Counted from the stretch's first letter, positions 7,857 to 51,600 are shown. The stretch: DNA of 64,000 bases from Deltaproteobacteria bacterium (GCA_016219015.1 JACRCL010000032.1:26588-90587); one strand, 5' to 3'. The notes: generated by a model from the letters alone, not told the origin. Program-made: numbers and translations.

Positions 7857-7878
7857 ATAATATTACGGTTTTTTTTAA

Positions 7879-8003: not shown

Positions 8004-8058
8004 TTTGTGATTTTGAGTTTTTTCAACCTGTTAAAAAAACGCTTTATACCGGAGGAAA

Positions 8059-9858: not shown

Positions 9859-9883
9859 AAAAGGCAAAAAGGAGAAACAACAG

Positions 9884-10675: not shown

Positions 10676-10777
10676 CTGTTGAGTTTTTTAACGGCCTTTT
10701 AGATTTTTCAGCATAAATACAGGGAAAACACTTAAAAAACCATTGAAGGTTTCGCGTTTTGATGTTATAAGGCAAAA

Positions 10778-11701: not shown

Positions 11702-11777
11702 ACTACCCTGCAGCTTGCTAAAGGGAGTGCTCAAGTTAAAAGAAATTTTTTTATGGAATGGGGCTACCAATAATTAT

Positions 11778-12311: not shown

Positions 12312-12312
12312 G

Positions 12313-13671: not shown

Positions 13672-13741
13672 CAGAAAGCAATACGGTCCAGCCGTGGCGG
13701 GCCCTGGCCCAGCCGCGGTATTTAAATTTTATGGAGCCGCC

Positions 13742-34259: not shown

Positions 34260-34682
34260 ATGGAGCTTCTCTTCAAAGAGGCCGACAGGTGGCTCAGGCA
34301 GGCGGAATACGACCTGAAGGCCGCGGAATGGAACCAGCAGGGCGGCTTTTTCGCCCCGGCCTGCTTCCTCGCGCAGCAGAGCGCGGCTAAATCGCTCAGG
34401 GCTTTTCTCTTCCTCAACAGGGAGGACGCGAGGGAGACAAGGTCGGTAGCCGACCTCCTCGACAGGGCGATGACCTATGAGGAAGAGTTCGGCAAGTTCG
34501 CGGGCACGTCCAAGGGCCTCGACCTTTACTACAAGACCTCGCGCTTCCCGGACGCGCTTCCGGGCGGGATACCCGCCGAGATAATATCCGGGAAAGACTC
34601 GCGGGACGCCATAAAGCAGGCTTCGGACATAATCTCGATAGTCGAGAAGAAGAGGAAGGGCTATCTCCCTGAGACCCTGTAA
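34260..34682 (+). CDS. HEPN-domain protein (stand-alone)
   Basis: 140 aa after a perfect RBS aaaggagg. N-terminal segment LRQAEYDLKAAEW...FFAPACFLAQQSAAKSLRAFL is typical of the HEPN fold. No adjacent nucleotidyltransferase (MNT) gene. Confidence 0.6.
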   Translation: MELLFKEADRWLRQAEYDLKAAEWNQQGGFFAPACFLAQQSAAKSLRAFLFLNREDARETRSVADLLDRAMTYEEEFGKFAGTSKGLDLYYKTSRFPDALPGGIPAEIISGKDSRDAIKQASDIISIVEKKRKGYLPETL

Positions 34683-34735: not shown

Positions 34736-35515
34736 ATGGGTGATAAGTTTGTGCTGATCCTGCCTTTTGTCTTCGGGGCCGTGATAGGCAGTTTCCTGAA
34801 CGTCTGCATCTACCGTATCCCGATAGGGCTTTCGATAGTCTCTCCCCCCTCGAAGTGCCCTTCCTGCGGCAGGAACATCCCTTTCTACTATAATATACCC
34901 ATCATAAGCTACGTCGTCCTTATGGGCAGGTGCGGGCTTTGCGGGGCGCCGATTTCCCCCAGGTACCTTCTCGTGGAGTCCTTCACGGGCCTTGCCGCCG
35001 TATCGCTCTTCCTGAAGTTCGGCCCCTCCTTTGAGCTGCTGGCCTATTTCGTCTTCGTCTCATCCCTTATCGTGGTCACATTCATAGACCTCAAATACCA
35101 GATAATACCGGACGTGATAAGCCTGCCGGGCATAGCCGTGGGCCTTGCCGCGTCCTTTTTCATCCCTTCCGTGAATTTCCTCAACTCGTTCATCGGCATA
35201 CTCGCCGGGGGCGGGGTGCTCTTCGGGATAGCCACGGCTTACTACCTCCTTACCGGCAAGGAGGGTATGGGCGGCGGGGACGTGAAGCTGCTCGGGATGA
35301 TTGGGGCCTTCCTCGGGTGGAAGGGCGTTATAGTAACGCTCCTTTTAGGCTCTTTTCTCGGGGCCGTTATAGGGTCGTTCATAATGCTCCTTTCCGGAAA
35401 GGGGAGCAGGCACCCGATACCCTTCGGCCCGTTCCTCGCCATCGGGGCGGCCGCGCACCTTTTCTTGGGCGAGGAGCTTATAAGGTGGTACATAGTTACG
35501 GCCGTCGGGGCCTGA
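34736..35515 (+). CDS. pilD: Prepilin peptidase / N-methyltransferase (A24 family)
   Basis: N-terminal tetra-Cys motif CPSCGRN...CGLCGAPIS, eight transmembrane segments and catalytic Asp context GGGDVKLLGMIGAFLGW. Confidence 0.9.
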   Translation: MGDKFVLILPFVFGAVIGSFLNVCIYRIPIGLSIVSPPSKCPSCGRNIPFYYNIPIISYVVLMGRCGLCGAPISPRYLLVESFTGLAAVSLFLKFGPSFELLAYFVFVSSLIVVTFIDLKYQIIPDVISLPGIAVGLAASFFIPSVNFLNSFIGILAGGGVLFGIATAYYLLTGKEGMGGGDVKLLGMIGAFLGWKGVIVTLLLGSFLGAVIGSFIMLLSGKGSRHPIPFGPFLAIGAAAHLFLGEELIRWYIVTAVGA

Positions 35516-38539: not shown

Positions 38540-38555
38540 TGGCACGGGTATTGCT
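38540..38555 (+). promoter_or_regulatory. Sigma54 (-24/-12) promoter: TGGCACG-N4-TTGCT
   Basis: ttggcacgggtattgcta exactly matches the RpoN consensus TGGCACG-N4-TTGCW. It lies 25 nt upstream of the minor-pilin ATG and just downstream of the sigma54-dependent activator gene. Confidence 0.6.
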
Positions 38556-38579: not shown

Positions 38580-39059
38580 ATGGCTAAAAGCTCTCAAAAA
38601 GGATTTTCGATAGCAGAGATACTTGTAGTGATGGGGCTGGCCGCCACCATTATCGCCATCGGCGCCCCGGCCCTCATAAGAGAGATGTCGCACCTGCGCC
38701 TCAAGAGGTCGGTCATGGACGTATCTACGGAGCTGAACGCCGCGAGGATGAAGGCGATAGCTAATAACACCAAGTACAGGGTCGAGTTCACATTGAACGC
38801 GGCCCCCACGCCCGACACGTTCAAGCTCGCGTACTACGATACGGGCACGAGCACATGGGTGCCCGACCCGAAGCACGCCACGAAGGGTGTAGAGCCGGGC
38901 ATTGACATAACCTCCCCGAACGCGGACTTTCAGGTGGAGTTCTACCCCACGGGCACTGGCACGAACAAGGATATATGCCTTCAGAACACCGCGACAGACA
39001 GGATGAAGGTCAGCGTGGAATTCGCGGTGGGCAAGATAACGGTCGATACAGGCTGCTAA
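38580..39059 (+). CDS. Type IV minor pilin, FimT/FimU (GspH-domain) family
   Basis: Prepilin leader MAKSSQKG|FSIAEILVV with Glu at +5. LIREMSHLRLKRSVMDVSTELNAARMKAIANNTKYRVEF resembles the FimT/GspH N-terminal region. Confidence 0.75.
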   Translation: MAKSSQKGFSIAEILVVMGLAATIIAIGAPALIREMSHLRLKRSVMDVSTELNAARMKAIANNTKYRVEFTLNAAPTPDTFKLAYYDTGTSTWVPDPKHATKGVEPGIDITSPNADFQVEFYPTGTGTNKDICLQNTATDRMKVSVEFAVGKITVDTGC

Positions 39060-39071
39060 AAAGAGGCTGCC

Positions 39072-39578
39072 GTGAAGATGGCACTGGACAGAAAAGGTTT
39101 TACGCTCATAGAGGTCCTCATAGCCATAACTCTCCTGAGCATCGGTATACTCGGGATCGCCGGGCTCGCGGGCACCGCCATAAAATCATCCGGCTACAGC
39201 CAGGCCATCACCCAGGCCAATAACCTCGCCCAGGAGAAGGTCGAGGCCCTCCTGAGCGTTGATTACAACAACATCCAGGCGACCGACACGACCACGGGCA
39301 ATTCGGCCCTTTGGAGGACCTGCGCGCAGACAGGTTTCGCGGCCAACAGGCCCGAATTCACCTGCACGCCGACCACGGCCACCGTGACCTCGCTCGGCAA
39401 GCCGTTCACATGGTCTTACAAGGTCACCTACATAGACCTTGACGGCGACAACATCGCGAACGCGAGCGTTGACGGGCTTAAAAGGATAGACCTGACGGTC
39501 TCATGGACCGACATACTCTGGCACACGACCAAGAACGTTACGATTGTGAGCTTAAGGAGCAGGGACTTCATCGAATAG
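39072..39578 (+). CDS. pilV: Type IV pilus minor pilin PilV-like
   Basis: GTG start after RBS aagagg. Prepilin leader MKMALDRKG|FTLIEVLIAITLLSIGILGIAGL. Confidence 0.8.
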   Translation: MKMALDRKGFTLIEVLIAITLLSIGILGIAGLAGTAIKSSGYSQAITQANNLAQEKVEALLSVDYNNIQATDTTTGNSALWRTCAQTGFAANRPEFTCTPTTATVTSLGKPFTWSYKVTYIDLDGDNIANASVDGLKRIDLTVSWTDILWHTTKNVTIVSLRSRDFIE

Positions 39579-39603: not shown

Positions 39604-42600
39604 ATGATAAGGCCTCGCAACAGTTCTTCGGTTCATCTCAGGGAAAAAGGGTTCTCGCTCATAGAGATGCTCATAGCCATCTTCATTACCGGGGTGGTGG
39701 CGGTATCCCTTTACTCGGTCTATAACATATTCTTCCGGCAGTCGAGCACGCAGGACATGGTCCTCGAGGCGCAGCAGAACGCGAGGGTCGCTATCAACCT
39801 GATGGAGAGGGAGCTCATAAACGCGGGCTACGCCTCGGCCACCCCGGACATAATAACGGTCGCCAACCCGAGCGAGATAGAGTTCATCTATACCGACCCG
39901 GCTACCGACAACAACATAAGCCCCACGGCCGGGAAAAGGCTCAAGGTCAAATACGCCCTCCAGACCACCGGCGGCATCCAGTACCTTACCCGCAAGGCCG
40001 ACAACCTCACCGAAGCCACGACCGGCAACACCGAGAAGGTCATCCCTTACGTCGACAGCCTCGCCTTCGGCTACTTCGAGAGGGAAGGGGAGACGGCCAC
40101 CACCACGACCCAGAACGACAGGAACGAGATAAAGTTCATAACCGTAACCCTCCAGACAAGGACAAAGAGCAACGCCCCCGGCACCTCAAGCCCCAAGACC
40201 TTCAAGGTGGAGACCCATATAAGGCTCAGGAACATCGGGGTGGGGCAGACGGGCCTCGACACCTCCCCTCCGTCCGCGCCCACGGGCCTTCAGGTCAGGG
40301 ACCCCGGCGTATGCGGCAGGCTCAAGGTGAAATGGACCAAGAACACCGAGGGCGACATCTCGGGCTATAAGATATACTACGGCACTGCCTCGGGCAATTA
40401 TACGGGCGTCATAAACGTCCCGATGGCGGTCCTTGCCGGTTCTACATACAGCTGCACCGAGGCCGGCTCATCGATAGAGTGCTCCATATTCCCATCGAGC
40501 CCGACCCTCGGCTACGTGGCCTCCAACGCCGCTGCCGGCACCGAGACGGTCTACTATGTCGCCGCGAAGGCCTACGACAATTCTCTAAACCACAGCTCGT
40601 TCTCAGGCGAGGTGAGCGGCAACCCCGCCACCAGCAACGCCGTTTTCGACGCAGGCGCTGACGACAGCACGATAAACCCGGAAAAGCCCGCTGCCGTAGC
40701 CGGGCTTACCGCTGCAGACGGGGCAGCCGACGGGCAGGTAAACCTTAGCTGGACGGCTTACGATTATACGACCGCCAACCCCGGGGTCGTCGGCTTCAGG
40801 GTCTACAGGTCCGCTAACCCGTTCGCGTCGTACCCCATAGAGCCGGGCGCGGGGATAGAATGGATAGCCGGAGAGCCGGGCAGCGGCATGCCCGAGATAA
40901 GCTCCTCGGCCACCGCCTACACGGACCCGGGCCCAGGACTTGTCGGGTGCAGGAAGTACTACTACGCCATAGCGCCGGTCAACTGCGACCCGACGCTTAT
41001 AACCGATAACGGCGGCGACCCTGATTCGAAGAAGTACCTCCAGGCCGAATACAACGCCACATGCGGCGACGGCGTAGCGGCCTGCTCTCCTGGCTCCGGC
41101 TTCGCCTCCGTGACAGGCTCGGATACCGCGCCCAGAAAGACCACCGTGCCGTCAGCCCCGACCATAAACGCGAGGGCCGGGTGGAAGAGGGTCGCGCTGT
41201 CGCTTACGCAGCCGGCTGATACGGACCTCGACCAGACATGCGTCTATGAGAACGACAGCGCGTCTTACCCGGAGCTTCTTACCGATACTACGAGCTATCC
41301 GAAGGTGAGCAAGTGCTACCAGGCTAATATCACGGTAACGCCTGACGCGAGGCTTGTCCCGGACTCCGGCGGCATATTCACCTCCACCGAGGTAGCGCCG
41401 TCGCAGTCCACATCTTTCTGGCATGATTCGATGACCTTGGAGAACCCCGGCACGCCGTCGCTGGCCGAAACGGGGACGTATTCGTACAGGGCCGTCTCCT
41501 TCGACCTCTGCGGCAACGGCTCGGCGCCCTCGGCGGCGCAGGCCACGACCATACTCTGCGGCGAGGACCCGTCCACCGGAGAAAAGCCCCCGGCGGTAAC
41601 GGCTGCGCAGTTCTCGAACTGCGACTCCCCGGCAGGGCTCACGTGGACGGCCGTTTCAAGCGACACGGCCTTCCCCTCCTCGCCGGACAACCCCTACGAC
41701 CTCGCCGGGTACAGGGTCTTCAGGGCCACAAGCCCGGTCTTCACGACGTCGACGATGGTATCCGGAGCGGCCCCCTTCTGGGGCACCTCGTATAACGATA
41801 CGACTATAACCGAGGGAGGGACTTACTATTACAGGGTCGTATCGACGGACTGCCCGTATGAGCGCGTAGACCCCTCGGAGGCCGTAATAAAGACCGACAT
41901 GGTCAATAACGTGCTCCATTCGGCCCTCCTTGGCCCCGTCAAGCCTGGCAGGATAGACAGGGACTTGAAGTGCGAGGACACGGTAGGGGCCGTTGACAGC
42001 GTATGCAACAAGGCCAACCCGCAGCACAGGGAGATACTGACCGGCGTTTCCATGAACAACTCAAGCGGCACCGGCAACGGAAGCAGCACGCCGGGGACGT
42101 CCTTTACGCATAACGCCATAACGATGTTTTTCAACAACACCAGCGCCGGGACGATGACGATAACCGGCGCAACGGTGAACTGGGTGAACTCGGCCGCCTT
42201 CCTGAGGGAAGTAAAGATAGGCGGCGGCAGGAGCGGCGTCGGGCAGACGTCGACGAACATCCCGCAGGCCTCCACCGTAGCCTCCGGCACTTCTCCTTAC
42301 ACGAGCATGGTGTCGAACGTGACGCTTACGAGCGCGCAGATACCGGCGGGCGCGCGCTATGTGCCGGTAAAGTTCGAGTTCAAGGACTCCGGCGGCACGA
42401 GCGCGGTGGACATGAGGGACGACCAGCTCCTTGTAACGCTCCAGGTCACCAACGACACGAGCGGGACAACGACGTGCGCCGCTTACCTGACAATATCACA
42501 GGTGCAGGAGGGCATAATCGTCCCCTTCGGGCCGTCTGTCTCGGCCACACAGCAGAACCAGCCCGCCAGCCCGACCTTCAGCTACGCGGTTCCGGGCTCG

Positions 42601-44001
42601 ACCGGGCTTAACAGCGTGCCGAACGGCTCGAACGGGTCGATAGTGGCCGGCTCAGGCACGACCGTCACGGTCTCGGCGAGCGTTCTGAGCAACACCACCG
42701 ACGAGGCCACGGGCTCCAAGATAGCCATATCTACGGCGAAGCTCTATTACAAGGCGACCGACAAGACGACCACTACGCCGCCAACGTCCGGCTTTACCGA
42801 GGTCACGATGACCCGGAGCGGCAACATCTGGTCCGGGAACATACCCGCCGAGGACGGCGAGAGGGTCTGGTACTACATAGTGGCCACCGACGCGGACGGG
42901 AACTGGGACAGGGACCCGGAGATAGCCGACGGCGCGTACGTCTACGACCAGGACAACTTCGACGCCTGCAACGTCACGCCCAACCCGCCGACGAACCTGA
43001 CGGCCACGCCGAGCGGCGCGAGCACCATAAACCTCGCATGGACCGCGACCGCAACATATACGAACGGGGCTGCGATAAACCCCTCGGACTCCATCGTATA
43101 CAGGATATCCCGGACGCCTGTATTCGCCACCCAGCCCGCGGACCAGGCCGGCACGACCTACTCCAACACCGGGCTTGCGGCGGGCGTCTACAGCTACACG
43201 GTAAAGGCAAAGAACTCGTGCTCCACCTCCGAGAGGATAAGCGCTAATTCCAATACGGCCGCTTCCTGCGTGGGCAACACGGCGCAGGCGACGCTGTCGG
43301 TAGATAAGACTCAGCTTTACAGGGGCGACAGCTATACGGTCACAATAGTCGACTGCTACGCCATGAGGACGGACATACCCGTAACGCCCCCGACCTACGG
43401 CGCGAGCATACAGACCGTAAACGGCGCGGACGCGAACTTCAACGGTTTCACCAACACGAGCACCGCGCCCGGGTCTTACAGCCCGTCGTTCGACGAGACG
43501 GGCGCTGCCACCGGCACCTTCGTAAAGACCATAACGACCACGAGCGACGCTACGGACTCCACAAAGCTCCTCGTGCTGCCGACGGACACGATAACGGTGA
43601 CCTATCCGTTCGCGACCCCGGCAACCAAGACAGTAAGCGTGATAGTCGACCCGTGCACCACTACGCCCAAGGCTCCGACCGCGCTCACCGGCTCCACGAC
43701 CGGCCAGAACATAACGGTATCGTGGACAGGGGTTACGCAGAACACCGACAACTCCGCCATAACGGACCTCGCCGGGTACAGGATATACGAGAAGGTCTGC
43801 GCCAACGGCAAGCCTAACTGCACGGGCTCCGACATAGTGGCCGACTGGTTCCTGAGGACGAGCGTGACAGGGGCGGTCACCAAGACCGTGGACGCCGACC
43901 AGGGCAACCTGAGCCAGAGGATATACTACTTCAAGGTGACGGCCTACGACACGTGCTCCACGCCAAAAGAGAGCGCGTACTCGAACACGTGGAACGAATA
44001 G
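39604..44001 (+). CDS. Giant PilW-like prepilin-type protein (1465 aa) with about six FN3-like modules; putative pilus tip adhesin
   Basis: N-terminus MIRPRNSSSVHLREKG|FSLIEMLIAIFITGVVAVSLYSVYNIFFRQSSTQDMVLEAQQNARVAINLMERELINAGY is a classic PilW-type prepilin domain (~210 aa). The ~1250-aa extension that follows carries recurring FN3-like signatures. Examples: P-S/P-A-P-T-x-L, then NLSWTA / ITVSWTG / LTWTAV, then GYRVFRA / GFRVYRS / GYRIYEK / GYKIYYG, then YYYRVVSTD / YYFKVTAYD / YYVAAKAYD. Confidence 0.75.
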   Translation: MIRPRNSSSVHLREKGFSLIEMLIAIFITGVVAVSLYSVYNIFFRQSSTQDMVLEAQQNARVAINLMERELINAGYASATPDIITVANPSEIEFIYTDPATDNNISPTAGKRLKVKYALQTTGGIQYLTRKADNLTEATTGNTEKVIPYVDSLAFGYFEREGETATTTTQNDRNEIKFITVTLQTRTKSNAPGTSSPKTFKVETHIRLRNIGVGQTGLDTSPPSAPTGLQVRDPGVCGRLKVKWTKNTEGDISGYKIYYGTASGNYTGVINVPMAVLAGSTYSCTEAGSSIECSIFPSSPTLGYVASNAAAGTETVYYVAAKAYDNSLNHSSFSGEVSGNPATSNAVFDAGADDSTINPEKPAAVAGLTAADGAADGQVNLSWTAYDYTTANPGVVGFRVYRSANPFASYPIEPGAGIEWIAGEPGSGMPEISSSATAYTDPGPGLVGCRKYYYAIAPVNCDPTLITDNGGDPDSKKYLQAEYNATCGDGVAACSPGSGFASVTGSDTAPRKTTVPSAPTINARAGWKRVALSLTQPADTDLDQTCVYENDSASYPELLTDTTSYPKVSKCYQANITVTPDARLVPDSGGIFTSTEVAPSQSTSFWHDSMTLENPGTPSLAETGTYSYRAVSFDLCGNGSAPSAAQATTILCGEDPSTGEKPPAVTAAQFSNCDSPAGLTWTAVSSDTAFPSSPDNPYDLAGYRVFRATSPVFTTSTMVSGAAPFWGTSYNDTTITEGGTYYYRVVSTDCPYERVDPSEAVIKTDMVNNVLHSALLGPVKPGRIDRDLKCEDTVGAVDSVCNKANPQHREILTGVSMNNSSGTGNGSSTPGTSFTHNAITMFFNNTSAGTMTITGATVNWVNSAAFLREVKIGGGRSGVGQTSTNIPQASTVASGTSPYTSMVSNVTLTSAQIPAGARYVPVKFEFKDSGGTSAVDMRDDQLLVTLQVTNDTSGTTTCAAYLTISQVQEGIIVPFGPSVSATQQNQPASPTFSYAVPGSTGLNSVPNGSNGSIVAGSGTTVTVSASVLSNTTDEATGSKIAISTAKLYYKATDKTTTTPPTSGFTEVTMTRSGNIWSGNIPAEDGERVWYYIVATDADGNWDRDPEIADGAYVYDQDNFDACNVTPNPPTNLTATPSGASTINLAWTATATYTNGAAINPSDSIVYRISRTPVFATQPADQAGTTYSNTGLAAGVYSYTVKAKNSCSTSERISANSNTAASCVGNTAQATLSVDKTQLYRGDSYTVTIVDCYAMRTDIPVTPPTYGASIQTVNGADANFNGFTNTSTAPGSYSPSFDETGAATGTFVKTITTTSDATDSTKLLVLPTDTITVTYPFATPATKTVSVIVDPCTTTPKAPTALTGSTTGQNITVSWTGVTQNTDNSAITDLAGYRIYEKVCANGKPNCTGSDIVADWFLRTSVTGAVTKTVDADQGNLSQRIYYFKVTAYDTCSTPKESAYSNTWNE

Positions 44002-44023: not shown

Positions 44024-45283
44024 ATGAAGGCTATGGACAAATTAAAGAGCGATAAGGGCTTCATCCTCATACTCGCGCTCGTGACCATGCTCGCGATGAC
44101 CCTCATCGGCATAAGCGTGGTCATGAACATGACGACCGACCTGGGACTTTCCCGGAACGAGCGCGAGGCCAAGCTCGCCACGCAATTGGCCGAGTCCGGG
44201 ATAAACGAGGCGATATCCCGCCTCCACCTCGCCAAAGTGAAGGCGCGCTACGTCGGGGAGGATACCGGGGATGCCGGCTACAGGGCCACCGGATGGAACT
44301 CGGACGATTCCAAGAACTTCGGCTACAACGGGAGCGCCGACAGGAGGAGCGCCGACAACCTCAAATACTCGGTCGACATAAAGTACCTCGACGAGACTAA
44401 CACCGAGGGCTTCTGCGACAGCAACAACAACGTAAGCCCGAACACCTCTTTAAACTCATCCACCTACCCGGCGGCATGGACGTGCGACAACGCCACGCCC
44501 GAGATAGTCATGTTCGGCCGGGACTTCAAGATGAACGACACTCTTACGAAGATAAGCTACGGCAAGCTCCCGGTCTACAGGATAACCTCCACCGGCACCT
44601 CGAACGACACGACGAAGACGATCATAGCCTACGTGGGCGCGAGCAACCTCAATACCGACACCGACTCCGCCATAAACACCAACGGGTGCGTGAACATCAA
44701 CGGCGGGTCTACCACGATAAGCGGAGGGGTGAAGGAGGCGGGCACCGGCGGTTGCACCACCTGCAACGACGGTATCTCCTGCAACACGAAGTCGTCCGAC
44801 GACTTGCAGACCTACCTCGGGATGGAACTGACCGAGGTGATAAACATGGCCAACGAGAAGCACAAGTGCAAGAACATCACCTGCAGCGCCGCGGGCGACG
44901 ACATCCCGTCGAGCGGCAAGATAGATACCGTGGTGACCGACTGGGGCGACTACGCGGGCAACTCATACTCGACCATGATATACATCGACAACTCCGGCGG
45001 CAAGGAGGTCGAGATTTCGGGCAATTTCCAGGGCAGGGGCATCCTTATCGTGACGGGGGACCTGAAGCTTTCCGGCACGCTTGCCTACGAGGGCCTCATC
45101 TATGTCTTAGGCAATCTCACCATAAGCGGCGGCGGCAGCGACCTTAACGTCACGGGGGGGGTCATGGCCAGCAACACCGTGGGCCTGAACGGCAACGTCT
45201 CCGTCACCTACGACCAGCAGACGCTCCTGGACGTGTCCAAGGAGAACTCCACCTCGGCCGTAATCCTCTGGAAAAGGCTTTGA
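44024..45283 (+). CDS. PilX-like pilus assembly protein, enlarged (419 aa) and Cys-rich
   Basis: N-terminus MKAMDKLKSDKG|FILILALVTMLAMTLIGISVVMNMTTDLGLSRNEREAKLATQLAESGINEAISRL is typical of the PilX N-terminal domain. Typical PilX is ~200 aa; this one has a long Thr/Asn/Cys-rich C-terminal part. Confidence 0.7.
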   Translation: MKAMDKLKSDKGFILILALVTMLAMTLIGISVVMNMTTDLGLSRNEREAKLATQLAESGINEAISRLHLAKVKARYVGEDTGDAGYRATGWNSDDSKNFGYNGSADRRSADNLKYSVDIKYLDETNTEGFCDSNNNVSPNTSLNSSTYPAAWTCDNATPEIVMFGRDFKMNDTLTKISYGKLPVYRITSTGTSNDTTKTIIAYVGASNLNTDTDSAINTNGCVNINGGSTTISGGVKEAGTGGCTTCNDGISCNTKSSDDLQTYLGMELTEVINMANEKHKCKNITCSAAGDDIPSSGKIDTVVTDWGDYAGNSYSTMIYIDNSGGKEVEISGNFQGRGILIVTGDLKLSGTLAYEGLIYVLGNLTISGGGSDLNVTGGVMASNTVGLNGNVSVTYDQQTLLDVSKENSTSAVILWKRL

Positions 45284-45598
45284 GCCGGGAAGTTCCCTGT
45301 GGTTTGCCGCGGGGTTCCCTGTAAAACCCCTCCCCCTTGACGGGGGAGGGTAGGGTGGGGGTGAAATGGGTTGTCGGTTTACGGTTATCGGTTATCAGCA
45401 GATAACGGACAACCGATAACTGATAACTTTCAAAAAAAACTCACCCTCCCCTCAGTCCCCTCCCGTCAGGGAGGGGAGATTAAGTAGATACCCCGGGGCT
45501 TGCTCCGGGGGGGCATAATAAAACTTTTCAGATTTTCCTAAATTTTTTTTTTGCCCGTCCGATATTATATATAATTATGTATCAATTAAAAAAATAGA

Positions 45599-45627
45599 TT
45601 GACATTTAAACCATATTGGAATAGATT
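45599..45627 (+). promoter_or_regulatory. Putative sigma70 promoter for the HTH-pilMNOPQ unit
   Basis: ttgaca, 17-nt spacer, tagatt, inside a ~200-bp AT-rich tract. Confidence 0.35.
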
Positions 45628-45753
45628 TCAATCAACTATCCTGAAAGCAGGCATAAGTTTGAGTAAAATAGCTGAAATTCCGGTAAATTCCCGTTATGTG
45701 ACTTTGGTGCTTGTTTTATGAACAGAAATAATCTAAAAAAGGTAAGAGAGAAC

Positions 45754-45915
45754 ATGCTCCTCTCGAAATCCGAGCTGGCTCGGAAGGCCGGTATCTCGCC
45801 TCTGACGATAGACAGGATAGAGAAGGGCTACCCGTGCAGGGTCGACACCAAGAGGAAGATCCTCCAGGCGCTGGGGCTCAGGGTAACCGATAAGGGGAAG
45901 GTATTCACGGAGTAA
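45754..45915 (+). CDS. Small XRE-family helix-turn-helix protein
   Basis: MLLSKSELARKAGISPLTIDRIEKG is an HTH_XRE signature. The ATG at 45754 follows RBS gagag. The track ORF starts at 45718 with no RBS. Confidence 0.6.
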   Translation: MLLSKSELARKAGISPLTIDRIEKGYPCRVDTKRKILQALGLRVTDKGKVFTE

Positions 45916-45924
45916 CGGGGGTTT

Positions 45925-46995
45925 ATGAATTTAGAGATGCCTTTTCTAAGGAAGAAAGACTCTGTCGCCTTTGACATAGGGTCCAGTTCCATAAAGCTCG
46001 TCCAGATGAACCGCACCAAGAGGGGTTGGGAGCTTGTAAAGCTCGGGGCCGCGGAACTGCCTCCCGAGGCCATCGTCGACGGCTCGATAATAGACTCCAT
46101 GACCGTGACCAACACCTTGAAGGACCTCATCAAGGAGCATAACGTAAAGGTCAAGGACGCGGTATCCTCCCTTACGGGCCACTCGGTCATCATAAAGAAG
46201 GTCAGCTTCCCCGCCATGACGGAGGAGGAACTGGCTGACTCCATCCAGTGGGAGGCCGAGCAGTACATCCCGTTCCCGATAACCGACGTAAACATAGATT
46301 TCCAGATACTCGGCGCCGACACCGAGGGCAGGGGCCAGATGGACGTTATGCTGGTGGCCGTGAAAAAGGACGTCATAAACGACTACACGAACGTCATCAA
46401 GGAAGCGGGCCTGAACCCGGTCGTCATAGACGTCGATTCCTTCGCGCTCGAAAACATGATGGAGATAAACTACCCCATGACCCCCGGCGAGAACCTCGCC
46501 ATGGTGAACGTGGGCGCCTCGATAACCTCCATAAGCGTCATACTCGGCGGCCTCACCATCTTCACGAGGTCCATACCCATGGGCGGCAACCAGTTCACGG
46601 AAGAGATACAGAGGCAGATGAACATAAGCTTCAAGGAGGCCGAGGAGCTGAAGACCGGCAAAAAGGCCGGCTCGGCCGAGGCGAACTCGATGCCCTACGC
46701 GATAGACACCGTGTCCACGAACCTCACCTTCGAGGTGAAAAGGTCGCTGGACTTCTTCCTCGGCGGCAGCCAGGGCTCCTACGTGAACAAGATATACTTG
46801 AGCGGCGGCGGGTCCAAGATAACGGGTCTTCAGAACCTCATGCAGGAGAAGACCTCGATACCGGTGGAGACCGTCAACCCCTTCAAGAACGTAGAGGCGA
46901 GCCCCAAGCAATTCGATAAGGAGAAGTTGAAGGAAATGGCGCCTCTTTTCGGCGTGGCCGTGGGCCTGGCCACGAGGAGGTTCGCCGACAGATGA
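45925..46995 (+). CDS. pilM: Type IV pilus assembly protein PilM (actin-like ATPase fold)
   Basis: FDIGSSSIKLVQM near the N-terminus, ~356 aa. Gene order M-N-O-P-Q follows. Confidence 0.9.
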   Translation: MNLEMPFLRKKDSVAFDIGSSSIKLVQMNRTKRGWELVKLGAAELPPEAIVDGSIIDSMTVTNTLKDLIKEHNVKVKDAVSSLTGHSVIIKKVSFPAMTEEELADSIQWEAEQYIPFPITDVNIDFQILGADTEGRGQMDVMLVAVKKDVINDYTNVIKEAGLNPVVIDVDSFALENMMEINYPMTPGENLAMVNVGASITSISVILGGLTIFTRSIPMGGNQFTEEIQRQMNISFKEAEELKTGKKAGSAEANSMPYAIDTVSTNLTFEVKRSLDFFLGGSQGSYVNKIYLSGGGSKITGLQNLMQEKTSIPVETVNPFKNVEASPKQFDKEKLKEMAPLFGVAVGLATRRFADR

Positions 46996-47564
46996 TACGC
47001 ATAAACCTCCTGCCCGTAAGGGCCGCCAAGAAAAAAGAGTCCATGAGGTTCCAGGTCACGGTAGCCGGCCTCATCACCTTCTTCGTCTTCGCCGTCTCCA
47101 TGGTCGCTTATTTCACCGTGAGGGGCGAGGCCAACTCCTTAAGCGACCAAATTTCGCGCGGGAACCAGGAGATAGAGGAGCTCAAGAAAAAGATAGGCGA
47201 GCTCTCAAAGATAAAAGAGCAGAAGAGGATAGTCGAGGAAAAACTCAAGATAATAACCGACCTCGAGGCCGCGCGCACCGGCCCGGTGAAGCTCTTCAAG
47301 AGGATCAGCGGGGCCATCCCGGAGAAGGCCTGGCTCCAGTCCATGAAGGACGACGGCTCGCTCGTGGTGTTGAAGGGCTACGCCGCCGACGACGAGATCG
47401 TGGCGGACTTCATGCGGGGCCTCCAGAAGAACAGGGAGCTCGGCAGCGTGGAGCTCGAGATAGCGCAGAGGATGATGGAGAAGGAAACCGGCATGGAGCT
47501 CGTGAGCTTCACCATAAGGCTTGAGAAGGAAAAGGAGAGGCCCGTACAGAGGGAGAAGAAGTAG
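46992..47564 (+). CDS. pilN: Type IV pilus assembly protein PilN
   Basis: N-terminal MIRINLLPVRAAKKKE, a single transmembrane segment and a coiled-coil. Overlaps the pilM stop. Confidence 0.85.
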   Translation: MIRINLLPVRAAKKKESMRFQVTVAGLITFFVFAVSMVAYFTVRGEANSLSDQISRGNQEIEELKKKIGELSKIKEQKRIVEEKLKIITDLEAARTGPVKLFKRISGAIPEKAWLQSMKDDGSLVVLKGYAADDEIVADFMRGLQKNRELGSVELEIAQRMMEKETGMELVSFTIRLEKEKERPVQREKK

Positions 47565-48185
47565 ATGGCGATACCCCTGAAGATAAACCTTGACTCGGTG
47601 ATAAAGCTCCCGCTGCCCAAGAGGATAATGATCCTCGCGGCGGTGAACATCGTCATAGTCGGCGCGGTCTACTGGTTCCTCATAGGCCCCAAATACACCG
47701 AGGTTAAGGGCCTCCGTGGACAGCTCCAGGAGTTGAACGTAAAGCTCACGGAGAACAGGCTGATTGCCGCCGACATACCGAAATACATCCACGACAAAGA
47801 GGAGATGGAAGACAAGCTCAGGAACGCGGTCGCCCAGCTCCCTAACGAGAAGGAGATACCCGACCTTATCGACAGCATCAGCAGCGCCGGAGAGAAGTCG
47901 GGCCTCAAGATACTCATCTTCAAGCCCGGCAAGGAGGTCAAGAAGGGCTTCTACGCGGAGGTCCCGGTGAGCATGTCCGTCGAGGGCAAGTTCGAGAGCC
48001 TCTACGACTTCAGCGACAAGGTCGGGCATTTCCCGAGAATAGTAAACATATCCGGGATGGACATATTATCCACCGGCCACAGGAACAGGGTGCCGGTGCT
48101 GAAGGCAAGCTTCACCGCCACTACCTTCAGGTTCATACCGGCCCCTCCCGAGGGAGCGCAAGCGCAAGGAGCGCCTAAAAAATAA
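47565..48185 (+). CDS. pilO: Type IV pilus assembly protein PilO
   Basis: Single transmembrane segment, coiled-coil, ~200 aa. Its position between pilN and pilP supports the call. Confidence 0.8.
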   Translation: MAIPLKINLDSVIKLPLPKRIMILAAVNIVIVGAVYWFLIGPKYTEVKGLRGQLQELNVKLTENRLIAADIPKYIHDKEEMEDKLRNAVAQLPNEKEIPDLIDSISSAGEKSGLKILIFKPGKEVKKGFYAEVPVSMSVEGKFESLYDFSDKVGHFPRIVNISGMDILSTGHRNRVPVLKASFTATTFRFIPAPPEGAQAQGAPKK

Positions 48186-48715
48186 TGGCAAGGACTTTTA
48201 AGATAACGGCCCTGGCAGTCCTGGTCCCTCTCGTCTTTCTCTCGTGCAAAAAGCAGGAGCAGCCCTCGCCCCCGCCGCCCGTGAAGAAGGCCCCGGCGGC
48301 CCAGAGCGCGCCCGCGGTCCCGGCCGGCGGCGCGGATACCTCGGCCCCGGCGGACTCGACGACCGACGCGAGGAACCGTAACCCGTTCCTGAGCCATATA
48401 CTCCTTATGAAAGGGATTGAAGGGCCCAGGAAGATGAAAGGGCCGATAGAATGCTGCGACCTTACCCTTTTCAGGCTCGTCGCGGTGGTGGCAAGCCCGG
48501 AGAGCTCCTTCGCGCTCGTGCAGGCCCCTGACGGCAAGAGGTACGTCGTGAAGAAAGGGGACCTCATAGGGTCGAGGGAAGGCAGGATATCAAGGATCGA
48601 GCAGAGGTCGATAACGGTAAGGGAATACAACAAGGACGAGAACGGCAAGGTCGTCTCTTCCGAGGATATAGAGCTAAAGATACCGACCGAGAAGGAATCC
48701 CCCCAGAAGCGCTAA
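48185..48715 (+). CDS. pilP: Type IV pilus assembly lipoprotein PilP
   Basis: Lipoprotein signal VLVPLVFLSCKK, Pro/Ala-rich linker, C-terminal beta domain. The start overlaps the pilO stop (ATAATG). Confidence 0.75.
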   Translation: MARTFKITALAVLVPLVFLSCKKQEQPSPPPPVKKAPAAQSAPAVPAGGADTSAPADSTTDARNRNPFLSHILLMKGIEGPRKMKGPIECCDLTLFRLVAVVASPESSFALVQAPDGKRYVVKKGDLIGSREGRISRIEQRSITVREYNKDENGKVVSSEDIELKIPTEKESPQKR

Positions 48716-48780
48716 AGGCGCTTCCGGTTTTTTTGCCCGTTGATTTGCCAATCAAGCGATTGAGATTGCAGGAGGTCTCT

Positions 48781-51600
48781 ATGCATATTCTGGATAACCG
48801 GCTCAGGCACGCGCTGACCGGCCTTATGGCCGCGGCTGTTTTACTGTTCTCGGGGTGCGCCTCTACCGGGCCCAAGGCGGTCAACGAGCCAACCCCTGGA
48901 GAGGAAAAGACGGAAAAGGCCCAGCAGCAGGCCCCGAAAGAGGAGAACAAGGCGCCTGAGAAGACGGCGGTCGAGTACATAAACGTAGTGGGCGAGGGCG
49001 ACAGGGTCCTCATAGGCACCACGGGGTCGGTAAGGTACACGGTGTTCAAGCTCTCGGACCCTTCGAGGCTCATAGTCGACATGCCCGGCGTGAACCTTGA
49101 CAAGGTCTCGGCGAACATCTCCGTCGGCAACGACTTCCTGAACGACATCACGGCCGTGAACTACGGCGAGAACAAAGAAATAGGAAGGCTCGTCATAAAC
49201 CTCAAGGAGGGCATAGACCACGAGGTGAAATCCGGCGAGAACAGCATCCTCGTTACCCTTAGAAAGGGCGGGGCCGCCGTAGACGCTTCGGCCGCCGTCG
49301 TAAAGGCTTCAGCCTCGGCCGAGGTAAAAGAGAGCGCGCCTGTTGCGGTCGCGCAGGCGCCCGCTGAGGAGCAGACACCCGCGCCTCCGGCCGTCGAGCC
49401 AGCCCCTCCTGTCGCGCCGGCCCCCGAACAGGCCGCCCCGGAGCAGCCTGCCCTGAAACAGGCCACGAAGATCGTAAAGATAGACTCGTCGAAAGACGGG
49501 CAGAATACGGTGATAAAGATACAGGCTGACGGGGCACTGGGGAATTTCAATTCCTTTGAGCTCGACTCGCCTTCGCGCATAGTCGTTGACATCTGGGGCG
49601 TCGATAGCGCCCTCGGCAAAGACCTCGTGAAACTTAAGGGCGGTCACATAAAGGACGTTAGGGTCGGCAGCCACCCCGACAAGGCGCGCCTCGTCTTCGA
49701 CGCCGCAAAGGCGAAGCTCCCGCCCCATTCGATAGTCAAGGATAACGATACAATAACCATAACCATCGGCCCGGCGGTCATCCCTGCTGAAAAGAAGGCC
49801 CAGGCCCCGAAGGAGTCCGTTGCAAAGGCCGAGGCGCCTGCTGTGAACGCGGCCCCTAAGGAGCCCGCAAGCCCGGCGCCGCAAATGCCGGCCGAATCCG
49901 AGGCAAAGTCGAGGATAGAGTCCGTTGACTTCAGGAAAGTGGCCGGCACCGCGAGGCTCACCATCACCGGCACCGCCAAGACAGAACACGCCGTAAAGGA
50001 CTCGTCCGACGGCAAGACCCTGGTCATCGACATAAAGGACGCGGTAATCTCGAAAGAGCTGACGAGGACGCTCGACGCCTCGAAGTTGAAGACCAATGTG
50101 CTGTCGATAAGCTCGTACCAGGAGTCGACTAAAGCACCTCAGACAGTTCGAGTCCTTGTAAAGCTCGTTGACAGGACCGCGTACAACGTAACTGAAGAGA
50201 ACGGGTCCGTCGTGGTCGAGTTCGCTTCCCCGGCCGAGGCGCAGCCCGCGGAAGAGAAGGCGGCAGCCGCCAAGAAAGAAGCGCCCATAACGGTTACCGG
50301 GAAAGAGGGCGCGGGCAGGGAATACACCGGCAGGAGAATCGACCTCGACATGCTGGACGCCAACATAACGGACGTTATCAGGCTCCTGGCCGAGATAAGC
50401 AACCTTAACATCATCGCCTCTGACGACGTGAAGGGCACGATATCGCTCCGGCTCAAGAACGTCCCCTGGGACCAGGCCTTCGACATAATACTCAAGGCAA
50501 AGGACCTCGACAGCATCAGGGACGGCAACGTAGTAAGGGTCGCCCCGGCGCTTAAGATAAGGCAGGAGAAAGAGACCGCCCTCGCCTCCAGCAGGGCTCA
50601 GGAAAAATTGGAGAACCTCGAAACGGAGTTCATCCCGGTAAGCTACGCCAACGCGGACGACCTCATCCCGCACATAAAACCCGTATTGACCGAGCGCGGC
50701 AACGTAACGAGCGAGAAGAGAACGAGCACGCTCATCGTACGCGACATAAGGAAAGGGATAGAGGCGGCAAAGGAGCTTGTAAAGAGGCTCGACAAGATAA
50801 CACCCCAGGTATTGATAGAGGCCCGGATAGTCGAGGCTGAAAGCTCGTTCGCCAGGGACCTCGGCATCCAGTGGGGCGCGGACTTCCAGACCGGCGGCGA
50901 TCTCAGCACGAACACGTTCGGCAGCACCGCCACGGCCGGCCAGACCCCGCCCAACCCCTCGGTCACCCCCCCGACATTCACGGGCAGGAGCGGCGTGCAG
51001 GACTTCGCGGTAAACCTCCCGGCCGCGGGCACGGCCGGCCCGCTCGGCGCGCTCGGCTTCGTGCTCGGCAAGGCAGGGTCGAACCCGCTTATCATCGACC
51101 TCCGCCTCTCTGCCGGAGAGTCCGAAGGCAAGGTGAAGACCATATCACGCCCGAGGATAAGCACGCTCGATAACAAGGACGCGAAGATAGAGCAGGGTGA
51201 GTCGATCCCGTTCGAGACGACATCGGCCTCAGGCACGGCCACGCAGTTCGTGGACGCTAACTTAAGCCTCACCGTGACGCCGCACATCACGCCGGACGGA
51301 AGGGTGTCGATGAAGATAAAGGCGAGCAGGAACTCCATCGGCTCCTTCAGGACGTCGTCCGGCGCGCCTTCGATAAACAAGAAGGAGTCCTCCACGGAGG
51401 TGCTCGTATCGGATAACGAGACGACCGTCATAGGCGGCATAGTGATAACCGACAAGAGCGAAACCGAAAAGGGCATCCCTCTGTTGAAGGACATCCCGGT
51501 ATTGGGCTGGCTCTTCAAGAGCAAGTCGGTCTCCGACAAGCAGACGGAACTCCTCATATTCATAACGCCGACAATCATGAAGGACAAGATAGCAGGCTGA
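48781..51600 (+). CDS. pilQ: Type IV pilus secretin PilQ with N-terminal AMIN domains and a long Ala/Pro/Glu-rich linker
   Basis: ATG at 48781 after RBS aggagg gives a lipoprotein-type signal MHILDNRLRHALTGLMAAAVLLFSGCAS. The C-terminal secretin domain carries ...VIGGIVITDKSETEKGIPLLKDIPVLGWLFKSKSVSDKQTELLIFITPTIM. Confidence 0.9.
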   Translation: MHILDNRLRHALTGLMAAAVLLFSGCASTGPKAVNEPTPGEEKTEKAQQQAPKEENKAPEKTAVEYINVVGEGDRVLIGTTGSVRYTVFKLSDPSRLIVDMPGVNLDKVSANISVGNDFLNDITAVNYGENKEIGRLVINLKEGIDHEVKSGENSILVTLRKGGAAVDASAAVVKASASAEVKESAPVAVAQAPAEEQTPAPPAVEPAPPVAPAPEQAAPEQPALKQATKIVKIDSSKDGQNTVIKIQADGALGNFNSFELDSPSRIVVDIWGVDSALGKDLVKLKGGHIKDVRVGSHPDKARLVFDAAKAKLPPHSIVKDNDTITITIGPAVIPAEKKAQAPKESVAKAEAPAVNAAPKEPASPAPQMPAESEAKSRIESVDFRKVAGTARLTITGTAKTEHAVKDSSDGKTLVIDIKDAVISKELTRTLDASKLKTNVLSISSYQESTKAPQTVRVLVKLVDRTAYNVTEENGSVVVEFASPAEAQPAEEKAAAAKKEAPITVTGKEGAGREYTGRRIDLDMLDANITDVIRLLAEISNLNIIASDDVKGTISLRLKNVPWDQAFDIILKAKDLDSIRDGNVVRVAPALKIRQEKETALASSRAQEKLENLETEFIPVSYANADDLIPHIKPVLTERGNVTSEKRTSTLIVRDIRKGIEAAKELVKRLDKITPQVLIEARIVEAESSFARDLGIQWGADFQTGGDLSTNTFGSTATAGQTPPNPSVTPPTFTGRSGVQDFAVNLPAAGTAGPLGALGFVLGKAGSNPLIIDLRLSAGESEGKVKTISRPRISTLDNKDAKIEQGESIPFETTSASGTATQFVDANLSLTVTPHITPDGRVSMKIKASRNSIGSFRTSSGAPSINKKESSTEVLVSDNETTVIGGIVITDKSETEKGIPLLKDIPVLGWLFKSKSVSDKQTELLIFITPTIMKDKIAG

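Follow-up and report, generated by a model that had tools for sequence, protein, structure and literature searches.

Modular pilins, in which effector modules are grafted onto a pilin module and are predicted to be exposed at the pilus tip, were described by Raynaud et al. in 2021 (PNAS, PMC8179133). The catalogue covers both monoderms and diderms and comprises more than 1200 proteins with 264 architectures; 12 of the proteins are of the pilin plus FN3 type (IPR012902-IPR003961), and mixed architectures are listed as well. Its prototypes are PilB and PilC of S. sanguinis, with a vWA and a lectin module, respectively, the vWA module of PilB being a proven adhesin, and a parallel between modular pilins and PilY1 is drawn explicitly (PMC8179133). 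PilY1 is a non-pilin protein recognized by its beta-propeller at the C-terminus and by a terminal strand with which it complements PilK/PilX (PMC8179133, PMC12918778). In systems that lack PilY1, the priming or "plug" role falls to the PilK/PilX subunit (PMC12918778; bioRxiv 10.64898/2026.02.12.705559). The place of PilY1 is there taken by large apical minor pilins, namely Thermus ComZ, a cyanobacterial PilX with a beta-solenoid, Caulobacter CpaL and T2SS GspK (PMC8179133, PMC12918778, bioRxiv 10.64898/2026.02.12.705559).

In this article, we describe a giant PilW-like prepilin from a deltaproteobacterial DNA stretch of 64,000 nucleotides, analyzed as a whole and referred to below as the window. 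The protein is a very large example of the modular pilin design. A sequence-only reading had taken this design to be new for type IVa pili, which does not hold, since modular pilins including the pilin plus FN3 combination were catalogued in 2021 (PMC8179133). We propose that the protein acts as a core minor pilin of modular type in a type IVa pilus, with its extension serving as an accessory surface contact, and we assign this reading a probability of roughly 0.6.

The pilus cluster and the prepilin module

The genes of the cluster are arranged in the order pilD, histidine kinase, sigma54 regulator, gspH-like, pilV, giant pilW, pilX and pilMNOPQ, with the following features:

34736..35515, +, prepilin peptidase PilD (Pfam A24_N_bact E 3.5e-31, Peptidase_A24 E 8.6e-24)
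35573-37135, +, PilS-like HAMP histidine kinase (Pfam HAMP, HisKA, HATPase_c)
37113-38474, +, PilR-like sigma54-dependent response regulator (Response_reg, Sigma54_activat E 2.8e-70, HTH_8)
38540..38554, +, sigma-54 type -24/-12 promoter element TGGCACGGGTATTGC, 26 nt 5' of the minor-pilin operon
38580..39059, +, GspH/FimT-FimU-like minor pilin, 159 aa (weak Pfam N_methyl and GspH)
39072..39578, +, PilV (GspI-class) minor pilin, 168 aa (TIGR02523 type_IV_pilV 53.5 bits against 52.2; N_methyl E 1.1e-8)
39604..44001, +, giant PilW, a 1465-aa ORF with 0 internal stops (translation)
44024..45283, +, PilX, GspK/PilK-class apical minor pilin, 419 aa (Pfam PilX_N E 2.8e-8)
45718..45915, +, 65-aa HTH_3/XRE-type regulator directly 5' of pilM (ORF)
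45925..51600, +, pilM, pilN, pilO, pilP and pilQ, a secretin with AMIN domains (PilM_2 E 1e-78, Secretin E 3.6e-50, AMIN x3)

PilN, PilO and PilP were assigned via Pfam-annotated syntenic loci; the pilMNOPQ set corresponds to the subcomplex for alignment and outer-membrane passage of type IVa pili. A Pfam HTH_3 gene occupies the matching position in loci L001, L004, L005, L006 and L007. In NCBIfam the 159-aa pilin matches XpsH and GspH-type models best, none of which reaches its cut-off. PilX begins with KG/FILILALV and lacks Glu5; its residues 323-389 match two beta-helix families, Bactofilin (E 0.011) and the antifreeze protein 7dc5 (E 0.036), at non-significant levels, and a beta-solenoid at its C-terminus is possible on this evidence. 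The gene profile matches agree with the minor-pilin order gspH/fimT-like, pilV, giant pilW, pilX that had been read from the sequence. The reported absence of pilY1 and pilE nearby likewise stands: the 64-kb window contains no PilY1-like gene, no further pilin gene, and no gene for a major pilin, pilB, pilT or pilC, and neither pilY1 nor pilE was found in ~20 syntenic clusters.

The promoter element is the sole + strand match in the window with the full TGGCAC-N5-TTGC pattern. It lies directly 3' of the sigma54-dependent regulator gene, and the exact consensus precedes the gspH-like gene at the matching position in nine other loci. For the looser pattern TGGC-N8-TGC the window has 10 matches, compared to a shuffle mean of 7.0, and 19 of 100 shuffles reach 10. 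Since the looser pattern is no more common than in shuffled sequences, the weight of the promoter call lies in its position and conservation.

The ATG of the giant gene is preceded at ~7 nt by a Shine-Dalgarno-like GGGGGA, and the GC content of the gene resembles that of its flanks. The encoded N-terminus reads ...LREKG/FSLIEMLIAIF, where position -1 is Gly16 and position +5 is Glu21. Two prepilin models score above their cut-offs, namely Pfam N_methyl (E 3e-7, 30.1 bits against 21.2) and TIGR02532 (23.3 bits against 16.3), and in alignments of 29-56 homologues Glu21 is invariant and Gly16 is conserved in at least 90%. The class III signal with Glu at +5 is thereby upheld, and the 1465-aa protein is confirmed, at the level of sequence, as a genuine prepilin. 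Its N-terminal part consists of three segments:

39604..39651, +, class III (prepilin) leader peptide, residues 1-16, ending with Gly16 (translation, Gly16 conservation)
39652..40245, +, pilin module, residues 17-214, with the alpha1 helix (19-72) and beta-sheets in a GspJ/PilW-class fold
40246..40266, +, short flexible linker, residues 215-221 (pLDDT <50 at 215-217)

The Pfam PilW model does not match the 1465-aa protein, and gspJ TIGR01711 and PRK10557 match its N-terminal helix alone, far below their cut-offs. Because the sequence HMMs remain below cut-offs, the GspJ/PilW class is assigned by predicted fold and gene order. The earlier suggestion of a PilW-like N-terminal region agrees with both, i.e., with the fold in the AF2 model (pLDDT 86.5 for residues 1-680) and with the slot between PilV and the PilX_N protein.

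Domain organization of the extension

Nine predicted beta-sandwich domains lie in the ~1250-residue extension; five of them are FN3, D3 is FN3-like, and D5, D6 and D8 are of unassigned family.

40267..40638, +, D1, FN3, residues 222-345, with a Cys284-Cys293 insertion
40681..41019, +, D2, FN3, residues 360-472 (hhalign D4 97.9%, D9 97.2%; AF2 pLDDT >90)
41020..41145, +, Cys-containing connector, residues 473-514, Cys487/Cys494 (short helices and strands in AF2)
41146..41568, +, D3, divergent FN3-like beta-sandwich, residues 515-655 (hhalign D4 81%, partial; pLDDT ~89-96)
41581..41913, +, D4, FN3, residues 660-770 (hhalign D2, D9, D7 97-98%; AF2 model)
41914..42522, +, D5, ~200-aa beta-sandwich of unassigned family, residues 771-973 (AF2: all-beta, pLDDT mostly >90)
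42523..42969, +, D6, ~150-aa beta-sandwich, residues 974-1122, with a highly conserved WYYIVATDADGNWDRDPE segment (AF2 model)
42970..43254, +, D7, FN3, residues 1123-1217 (hhalign D9 99.4%)
43255..43656, +, D8, Ig-like beta-sandwich, residues 1218-1351 (AF2 model)
43657..44001, +, D9, C-terminal FN3, residues 1352-1465, and stop codon (hhalign D7 99.4%)

When the AlphaFold-delimited domains are compared by hhalign, D1, D2, D4, D7 and D9 are mutually homologous FN3 domains, with most pairs at 89-99%; the D1-D7 pair reaches 32% over 37 columns, and D1 is linked via D9, D2 and D4. The roughly six FN3 modules recognized earlier correspond to these five domains and the divergent D3, and the motifs listed for them were located: SWT-type motifs (LKVKW 240, VNLSW 379, INLAW 1142, ITVSW 1370), G(Y/F)R-type motifs (GYKIYY 254, GFRVYR 397, GYRVFR 702, GYRIYE 1391) and YYY-type motifs at 452, 626, 741, 1196 and 1441. 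D5, D6 and D8, which are not FN3 by sequence, had been overlooked.

Domain databases miss most of the extension. Pfam detects one or two FN3 domains (fn3, 30.7 bits against a gathering score of 25), and over the extensions of 29 family members it returns fn3, Ig_RIMBP2 and RGI_lyase and nothing else, the Ig_RIMBP2 match being weak in D9 (1355-1396) and found in 13 of the 29. In D7, the family profile matches the FN3 domain of chitinase A1 (1k85, E 1.2e-4). D5 has no sequence match in Pfam, NCBIfam or PDB and no relation to the FN3 modules by hhalign, while D6 contains the invariant residues W1089, D1096, G1099, N1100, R1103 and P1105. The AF2 model of residues 641-1465 has a pLDDT of 90.4, and D9 is modelled at 88-96 up to the final residue. 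All 24 Cys of the protein are conserved at 68-100%, and most are co-conserved with a nearby Cys on or close to a domain border (Cys487 and Cys494 of the connector, 0.68 each), a pattern that reads as a signature of a secreted protein. No ligand-binding domain (lectin, vWA, PA14) was recognized in the extension, and no beta-propeller was found, including by Pfam over the 29 family members. The domain searches proposed earlier thus return FN3/Ig-type domains only, and together with the models they support an extension that is a chain of FN3/Ig-like beta-sandwich domains and nothing else.

Homologues, proposed role and rival explanations

We found 67 full-length or nearly full-length homologues of 28-94% identity, conserved over the whole length, with the domain order kept down to ~27% identity. 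The giant pilW is carried by 22 GTDB species (groundwater MAGs) with identical synteny in all; the carrier organisms are uncultured. An artefactual fusion of pilW to a separate FN3 protein, whether by frameshift, assembly join or pseudogene formation, is refuted by the uninterrupted architecture in more than 65 independent assemblies and in 22 species; the linker is conserved, as are the domains on either side of it. In L032, a frameshift-ridden long-read assembly, the giant gene is split, but so is every gene in the contig.

Relatives show the fusion in 22 species and a different arrangement in L006, where a matching cluster has a 237-aa PilW in the slot next to a large PilX of 44% identity; in L007 a 2871-aa protein occupies the same slot. 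Such length differences in one gene slot indicate that the extension is an accessory graft. The 150 best relatives of the pilin module include newly retrieved ones, of which about half have 300 aa or fewer and 39 are longer than 1300 aa (the longest 4445 aa), and a rough neighbour-joining tree requires at least nine switches between short and giant forms. Mean pairwise identity is 0.53-0.58 in D1, D2 and D6 (D6 0.57) versus 0.46-0.49 in D7-D9, whose lengths vary across the family. D8 is the least conserved and most length-variable domain (0.455, 118-254 aa), and residues 1251-1275 form the segment of lowest conservation (0.38).

Transcription would probably start at the sigma54 promoter under control of the adjacent PilR-like regulator, and the leader would be cleaved by the neighbouring PilD peptidase. 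The established model of the priming complex consists of GspH-I-J-K or FimU-PilV-W-X. By this model, the GspH-like protein, PilV, PilX and the pilin module would together form the complex from which each pilus starts and which is retained at its tip, where one copy of the ~1250-residue chain would be carried behind a predicted flexible linker of 7-10 residues. With domains 2-3 nm wide the chain could thread the PilQ secretin and, fully extended, could reach roughly 30-40 nm past the tip. The giant PilW is probably displayed at the pilus tip. The conserved proximal domains, the variable D7-D9 and the absence or doubling of the extension in relatives point to an accessory surface-contact function; the extension most likely serves adhesion or reach rather than pilus assembly as such, and a putative adhesive role is plausible. 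FN3 arrays are often mere spacers, which, like the lack of a recognized ligand-binding domain, counts against such a role.

The protein could instead be a fused equivalent of PilW and PilY1 that takes over from PilY1 the function of tip adhesin and the licensing of pilus initiation. The absence of a PilY1-like gene from the window and ~20 syntenic clusters is consistent with this, as are the ~1250 extra residues, close in size to PilY1 or MshQ, the latter being a ~1200-aa non-propeller protein proposed as a PilY1 analogue (PMC12918778). The family-wide conservation of the C-terminal ...ES..S..WNE tail would also fit, but this tail is modelled within D9 at pLDDT ~92 and not as a free strand, the beta-propeller is absent, and in PilY1-less systems PilK/PilX gives the complementing strand in cis (PMC12918778). 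Moreover, the otherwise identical cluster of L006 has no pilY1 although its PilW is short, which makes the absence of pilY1 from the cluster independent of the extension. Of the earlier idea of a PilY1 substitute, the absence of pilY1 from the clusters therefore stands and the dependence of that absence on the extension does not. We regard the replacement of PilY1 as unlikely; by analogy, the neighbouring large PilX, which lacks Glu5, is the likelier candidate for the assembly or "plug" role of PilY1.

Somewhat less probable still is a passive structural element, such as a stalk or spacer, a tether that bears force, or a part of the priming complex that gates the secretin or spans the periplasm. 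The exclusive presence of FN3/Ig-type domains with no recognized binding domain, the domain order kept to ~27% identity and the conserved Cys pairs at domain borders would suit it, but the same machine does without the extension in L006 and has it doubled in L007, and variability greatest in the distal domains better fits an exposed, ligand-facing end. We consider it very improbable that the cluster builds a short pseudopilus similar to those of type II secretion or EPS export, with the prepilin helix anchoring a periplasmic or cell-surface protein in the membrane. The missing major pilin, pilB, pilT and pilC genes in the window and the GspH-I-J-K-like minor pilins could be so explained, as could weak NCBIfam matches to the Hps EPS pseudopilins HpsB/HpsC, which are restricted to relatives P0109 and P0076 and, within the window, to PilV (HpsB, E 0.0035). 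However, pilMNOPQ with an AMIN-domain secretin is a type IVa pilus signature, PilV scores above the type IV PilV equivalog cut-off, and a PilB-type ATPase adjoins the cassette in L003.

Comparison with known systems

The type IVb minor pilins CofB/TcpB also combine a pilin module, a linker and beta-rich tip domains (PMC8179133), but each is a single homotrimer-forming minor pilin with two extra domains, and we saw no sequence or operon relation to the giant PilW. ComZ, the cyanobacterial PilX, CpaL and GspK share the principle of a tip-complex minor pilin with a bulky extra domain where PilY1 is absent. There the enlarged subunit is of K/PilX class with a solenoid or alpha-domain insert inside the pilin fold, whereas here the J/PilW-class subunit is enlarged by a C-terminal string of beta-sandwiches; judging from its weak beta-helix matches, the neighbouring 419-aa PilX may itself belong to the large apical group.

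The GspJ/PilW/PilJ family (XcpW 3nje, EpsJ 2ret, GspJ 3ci0, Thermus TTHA1219 5g23) shares with the giant PilW the Glu5 and the gene order GspH-, GspI/PilV-, J-, K/PilX-like, but its known members are of ~150-280 aa and lack C-terminal modules. The PilY1/PilC tip adhesins and the proposed MshQ are similar in exceeding 1000 aa, in their association with minor-pilin operons, in a presumed surface-contacting tip location and in the logic of a carrier with a variable effector module (PMC8179133). In contrast to PilY1, the giant PilW has a pilin module and no propeller and occupies the J slot rather than a position downstream of K.

Modular pilins share the N-terminal pilin module, the short linker, the C-terminal non-pilin modules and the predicted tip display. 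The prototype PilB is a proven adhesin, whereas the giant PilW is known here from sequence and models. It differs further in its nine extra domains and length of 1465 aa, compared to 860 aa for the largest cited modular pilin (PMC8179133), and in its carrier: the prototypes are accessory pilins of monoderms, whereas here the modules are borne by a core GspJ/PilW-class priming pilin of a diderm type IVa pilus.

Giant prepilin gene and its pilus cluster

The open reading frame at 39604-44001 on the forward strand is intact, encodes 1465 aa, and is preceded by a Shine-Dalgarno-like GGGGGA about 7 nt 5' of its ATG. The protein, here called giant PilW, has at its N-terminus (LREKG/FSLIEMLIAIF) a short charged leader whose last residue is Gly at -1, and then a hydrophobic alpha1-N segment that carries Glu at +5. 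The class III (prepilin) signal noticed in the sequence-only reading is confirmed by these residues and by two profiles that score above their curated cut-offs, namely PF07963 (N_methyl; 30.1 bits against 21.2) and TIGR02532 (23.3 bits against 16.3). Across the aligned homologues Glu21 never varies, and Gly16 is kept in at least 90%. A gene for PilD (Peptidase_A24) lies in the same cluster 4 kb upstream, and cleavage and N-methylation of giant PilW by the prepilin peptidase are predicted.

Every gene of the window lies on the forward strand; the relevant features are, in 5' to 3' order:

secA, then argJ, +, before the HEPN gene
34260-34682, +, HEPN gene
pilD, +, prepilin peptidase
after pilD, +, HAMP histidine kinase and sigma54-dependent response regulator
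38580-39059, +, GspH/FimT-like pilin
PilV gene, +, TIGR02523 over its cut-off
39604-44001, +, giant PilW gene
44024-45283, +, PilX, a 419-aa PilX_N protein without Glu5
45718-45915, +, 65-aa HTH gene
pilM, pilN, pilO, pilP and pilQ (secretin with AMIN domains), +, after the HTH gene
aroC, aroK and aroB, +, after pilQ

The domain assignments agree with the order of minor-pilin genes read earlier (GspH/FimT-like, PilV, giant gene, PilX). None of pilA, pilB, pilT, pilC or pilY1 occurs in the window, the remaining 40 kb of which is housekeeping. A small pilin gene hidden in the gap at 45283-45925 is ruled out, the sole ORF there being the HTH gene. That gene, of HTH_3/XRE type, abuts pilM on its upstream side and is found there in all related loci that are complete (L001, L004, L005, L006 and L007, contigs of other genomes or metagenomes); the surrounding segment 45000-45999 has the lowest GC of the region (0.50). 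The HEPN gene (140 aa, E 1.6e-21) stands alone between argJ and pilD, is conserved in most related loci, and has no partner nucleotidyltransferase gene evident beside it. In a single lineage (L005 and L021, which are one genome) a DUF3617 gene (L005 18959-19438) is inserted between pilN and pilO, pilMNOPQ being otherwise conserved.

Directly after the gene of the sigma54-dependent response regulator, 26 nt 5' of the GspH-like gene, lies a perfect sigma54 -24/-12 element (TGGCACGGGTATTGC, 38540-38554), and the exact consensus recurs at the matching position in nine related loci. What the PilS/PilR-like pair controls in these organisms seems to be the minor-pilin operon and not a major pilin gene next to it.

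Assignment of giant PilW to a pilin class depends on the predicted fold and on gene order. The model has a GspJ-type globular fold on the alpha1 helix, and the gene stands between PilV (GspI class) and PilX (GspK class), after a gene of the GspH/FimU class, an order shared by about 20 related loci. Sequence profiles do not place the protein in the GspJ/PilW class: Pfam PilW gives no match, and TIGR01711 gspJ (16.9 bits against a cut-off of 64.85) and PRK10557 (29.9 against 120) match the N-terminal helix only. The protein is a prepilin with a predicted GspJ-class head. The neighbouring GspH-like and PilV proteins have weak N-terminal NCBIfam matches to proteins D, A and C of the 'Verru_Chthon cassette', an NCBIfam-defined four-gene prepilin cassette of Verrucomicrobia and Chthoniobacter whose member A is modelled at approximately 1300 positions; this may be an independent case in which a single member of a minor-pilin cassette is giant.

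Domains and cysteines of the extension

Two AlphaFold2 models built on an alignment of 56 sequences cover giant PilW with pLDDT of 86.5 (residues 1-680) and 90.4 (residues 641-1465). The pilin module (residues 17-214) is followed by a linker of low pLDDT (215-221), flanked by two confident domains, and then by nine beta-sandwich domains, D1 (222-345) to D9 (1352-1465). The sequence-only reading had described about six FN3 modules from a recurring motif series; the series is indeed present, Pfam fn3 exceeds its gathering score, and seven-strand beta-sandwiches matching PF00041 and FN3 structures are found. In profile-profile comparison D1, D2, D4, D7 and D9 are homologous FN3 modules (89-99% for most pairs); direct comparison of D1 with D7 gives only 32%, and D1 is tied to the group via D9, D2 and D4. 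D3 is a divergent FN3 module (81%). By the same comparison D5 (~200 aa), D6 (~150 aa) and D8 (~130 aa) have no sequence relation to the FN3 modules, and they match nothing among Pfam, NCBIfam and PDB sequence profiles. Homologues of D5-D6 were also sought with a word-indexed search, which brought up no more than three fragments, all from this family and one of them from a frameshifted assembly. A calcium-binding reading of DADGNWDRD in D6 was dropped, the segment resembling a common bacterial motif of the FN3 F-G hairpin (Y-x-V-x-A-x-D-x-x-GN).

Giant PilW contains 24 Cys residues, each 68-100% conserved. Neighbouring residues with matching conservation frequencies form the putative pairs 284/293, 487/494, 546/571, 790/801 and 1399/1406, and the pairs 449/461, 636/652, 673/750, 1122/1206, 1222/1251 and 1351/1451 are invariant. 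The pattern is what would be expected for disulfides of an exported protein. Apart from these 22 residues in neighbouring co-conserved pairs, Cys237 in D1 (40312-40314) and Cys958 in D5 (42475-42477) are invariant and lack an evident partner in the same domain; they could form a long-range D1-D5 disulfide in a folded-back chain, make an intermolecular bond, or be free thiols.

Homologues and length variation in the PilW slot

Among 5.8 billion proteins searched, giant PilW has 67 full-length or nearly full-length homologues at 28-94% identity, the complete ones 1387-1729 aa long, all from metagenomes and MAGs of uncultured 'Deltaproteobacteria' or Thermodesulfobacteriota. Conservation runs along the entire length of their alignment. 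The gene is present in 22 GTDB species representatives, all of them groundwater-type MAGs, and every locus long enough to judge has GspH, PilV, the giant gene and PilX followed by pilMNOPQ, without an additional large gene. A homologue of 31% identity in a different neighbourhood keeps the four-gene cassette. An assembly or frameshift artefact, including the joining of two genes that the earlier reading had named as a possible objection, is ruled out by the more than 65 full-length homologues and by identical synteny in 22 species. A horizontal island was considered and rejected, the GC content (0.57-0.63) being like that of the flanks. In one long-read metagenome assembly (L032) nearly every gene is in fragments, the giant pilin included, and some of the short database 'homologues' come from it; these broken genes look like sequencing frameshifts, not biology.

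Lengths in the PilW slot vary widely. A profile of the pilin module compared with 1.84 billion cluster representatives matched 91 proteins at E<=1e-30. Among 140 relatives drawn from the best 150 matches, half (70) have the usual PilW length of up to 300 aa and 39 exceed 1300 aa, the longest having 2871, 3653 and 4445 aa. Each of the 53 relatives above 800 aa aligns with giant PilW at 24-48% identity, in most cases collinearly across the greater part of the query, and the domain order is fixed down to ~27% identity. The longest run past giant PilW with further FN3/Ig-like sequence, beyond which Pfam recognises in the 2871-4445-aa proteins only one weak BNR-like match. Within the family the proximal D1, D2 and D6 are the most conserved domains (mean identity 0.53-0.58, against 0.47 for the pilin module); conservation is lowest, and length most variable, in the distal D7-D9.

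Two metagenomic contigs are the decisive cases. The cluster of L006 (pilD-gspH-pilV-pilW-pilX-HTH-pilMNOP) encodes a 237-aa PilW (2639-3352) that stops just past the pilin module, next to a PilX 44% identical to that of the window; the matching cluster of L007 has a 2871-aa protein in the PilW slot (5534-14149). A rough neighbour-joining tree of the pilin modules, an approximate method, requires at least nine switches between short and giant forms, with the L006 protein nested among giants. From the short PilW of L006, the 2871-aa PilW of L007 and these switches we infer that the extension is an accessory graft, which can be lost or lengthened with the rest of the machine unchanged.

Proposed role and comparison with known modular pilins

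As predicted from sequence and the AlphaFold2 model, the protein would consist of a flexible linker and a chain of nine beta-sandwich domains on a GspJ-class head, and the genes for its cognate peptidase, minor-pilin partners and secretin form one cluster with a sigma54 promoter element. Under the established GspH-I-J-K / FimU-PilV-W-X priming-complex model (Treuner-Lange 2020), giant PilW would enter the complex that initiates each pilus and remain at the tip. Because giant PilW would be part of the tip complex, one chain of ~1250 residues would be displayed per pilus; threaded through PilQ, it could reach a few tens of nanometres. Both the polymorphism of the slot and the variability of the distal domains indicate that the extension has an accessory role and faces outwards. 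Adhesion or reach is predicted as the most likely function, by analogy with the prototype modular pilin PilB, in which the demonstrated role of the grafted module is adhesion (PMC8179133). Chains of FN3 domains may also serve simply as spacers.

The sequence-only reading had suggested that a prepilin with its own adhesin modules could substitute for PilY1, which is encoded in none of the pilus clusters examined. A contribution as adhesin is possible; replacement of PilY1 in assembly is doubtful, because the L006 cluster has neither the extension nor pilY1, because giant PilW lacks the C-terminal PilY1-type beta-propeller (PF05567 / IPR008707) and its C-terminal tail is packed on D9 in the monomer model (pLDDT ~92), and because the PilY1 licensing strand acts on the PilK/PilX subunit, which supplies it in cis where PilY1 is absent, as in T2SS, Com, Tad and V. 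cholerae competence pili (PMC12918778). PilX is conserved beside short and giant PilW alike. Cyanobacterial and Thermus PilX/ComZ carry a beta-solenoid proposed to act as a plug (bioRxiv 10.64898/2026.02.12.705559), and the PilX of the window may carry a similar one in its C-terminal part (GRGILIVTGDL...NVTGG...NGNVSVTYD, residues 323-389). The beta-helix matches of this segment are weak and non-significant (antifreeze protein 7dc5, E 0.036; Bactofilin, E 0.011; also MinC_C), so we regard the solenoid as a lead, not a result; no solved structure is matched significantly that would make PilX a relative of GspK or ComZ.

We give about one chance in four to the broader reading in which the J subunit (PilW/GspJ) is the adhesin carrier throughout this groundwater lineage. 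It would bear a disulfide-stapled beta-sandwich tether of 1250-4200 residues with a variable distal end on pili without any PilY1, solenoid-bearing PilX would serve as the plug, and the swapping of 0, 9 or >20 domains in the slot would be a fast-evolving determinant of host or substrate range. If true, this would be a third way to arm the tip of a T4a pilus, besides PilY1 in trans and an enlarged PilX/ComZ.

The earlier suggestion that such a design was not described does not hold, because modular type IV pilins, including pilin-FN3 combinations, were already defined and catalogued by Raynaud et al. 2021, who predicted their exposure at the tip (PMC8179133). That catalogue covers monoderms and diderms and sorts >1200 proteins into 264 architectures; it places pilin plus FN3 among the fifteen commonest of these and explicitly likens the strategy to PilY1 (PMC8179133). 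With N_methyl and fn3 over gathering scores and a low-pLDDT linker, giant PilW falls within the definition and shares the design; in the literature covered, which is incomplete, nothing specific to giant PilW or a PilW-FN3 fusion was found. What sets the present case apart is the scale and the core-subunit carrier. The largest modular pilin cited in PMC8179133 has 860 aa, in contrast to 1465 aa and nine domains in giant PilW and nine to >20 grafted domains in relatives reaching 4445 aa. The carrier is specific as well, being the core priming subunit (GspJ/PilW) of the type IVa pilus of a diderm, in a lineage with no pilY1 in its pilus clusters; so are the fixed domain order and the variable length of the proteins in the slot. 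For the present the practical impact is limited, the hosts being uncultured groundwater bacteria. Short, giant and double-giant PilW in one slot of an otherwise identical machine amount to a natural experiment, through which one can ask what a tip-borne extension contributes to pilus function and how so bulky a tip passes through the secretin.
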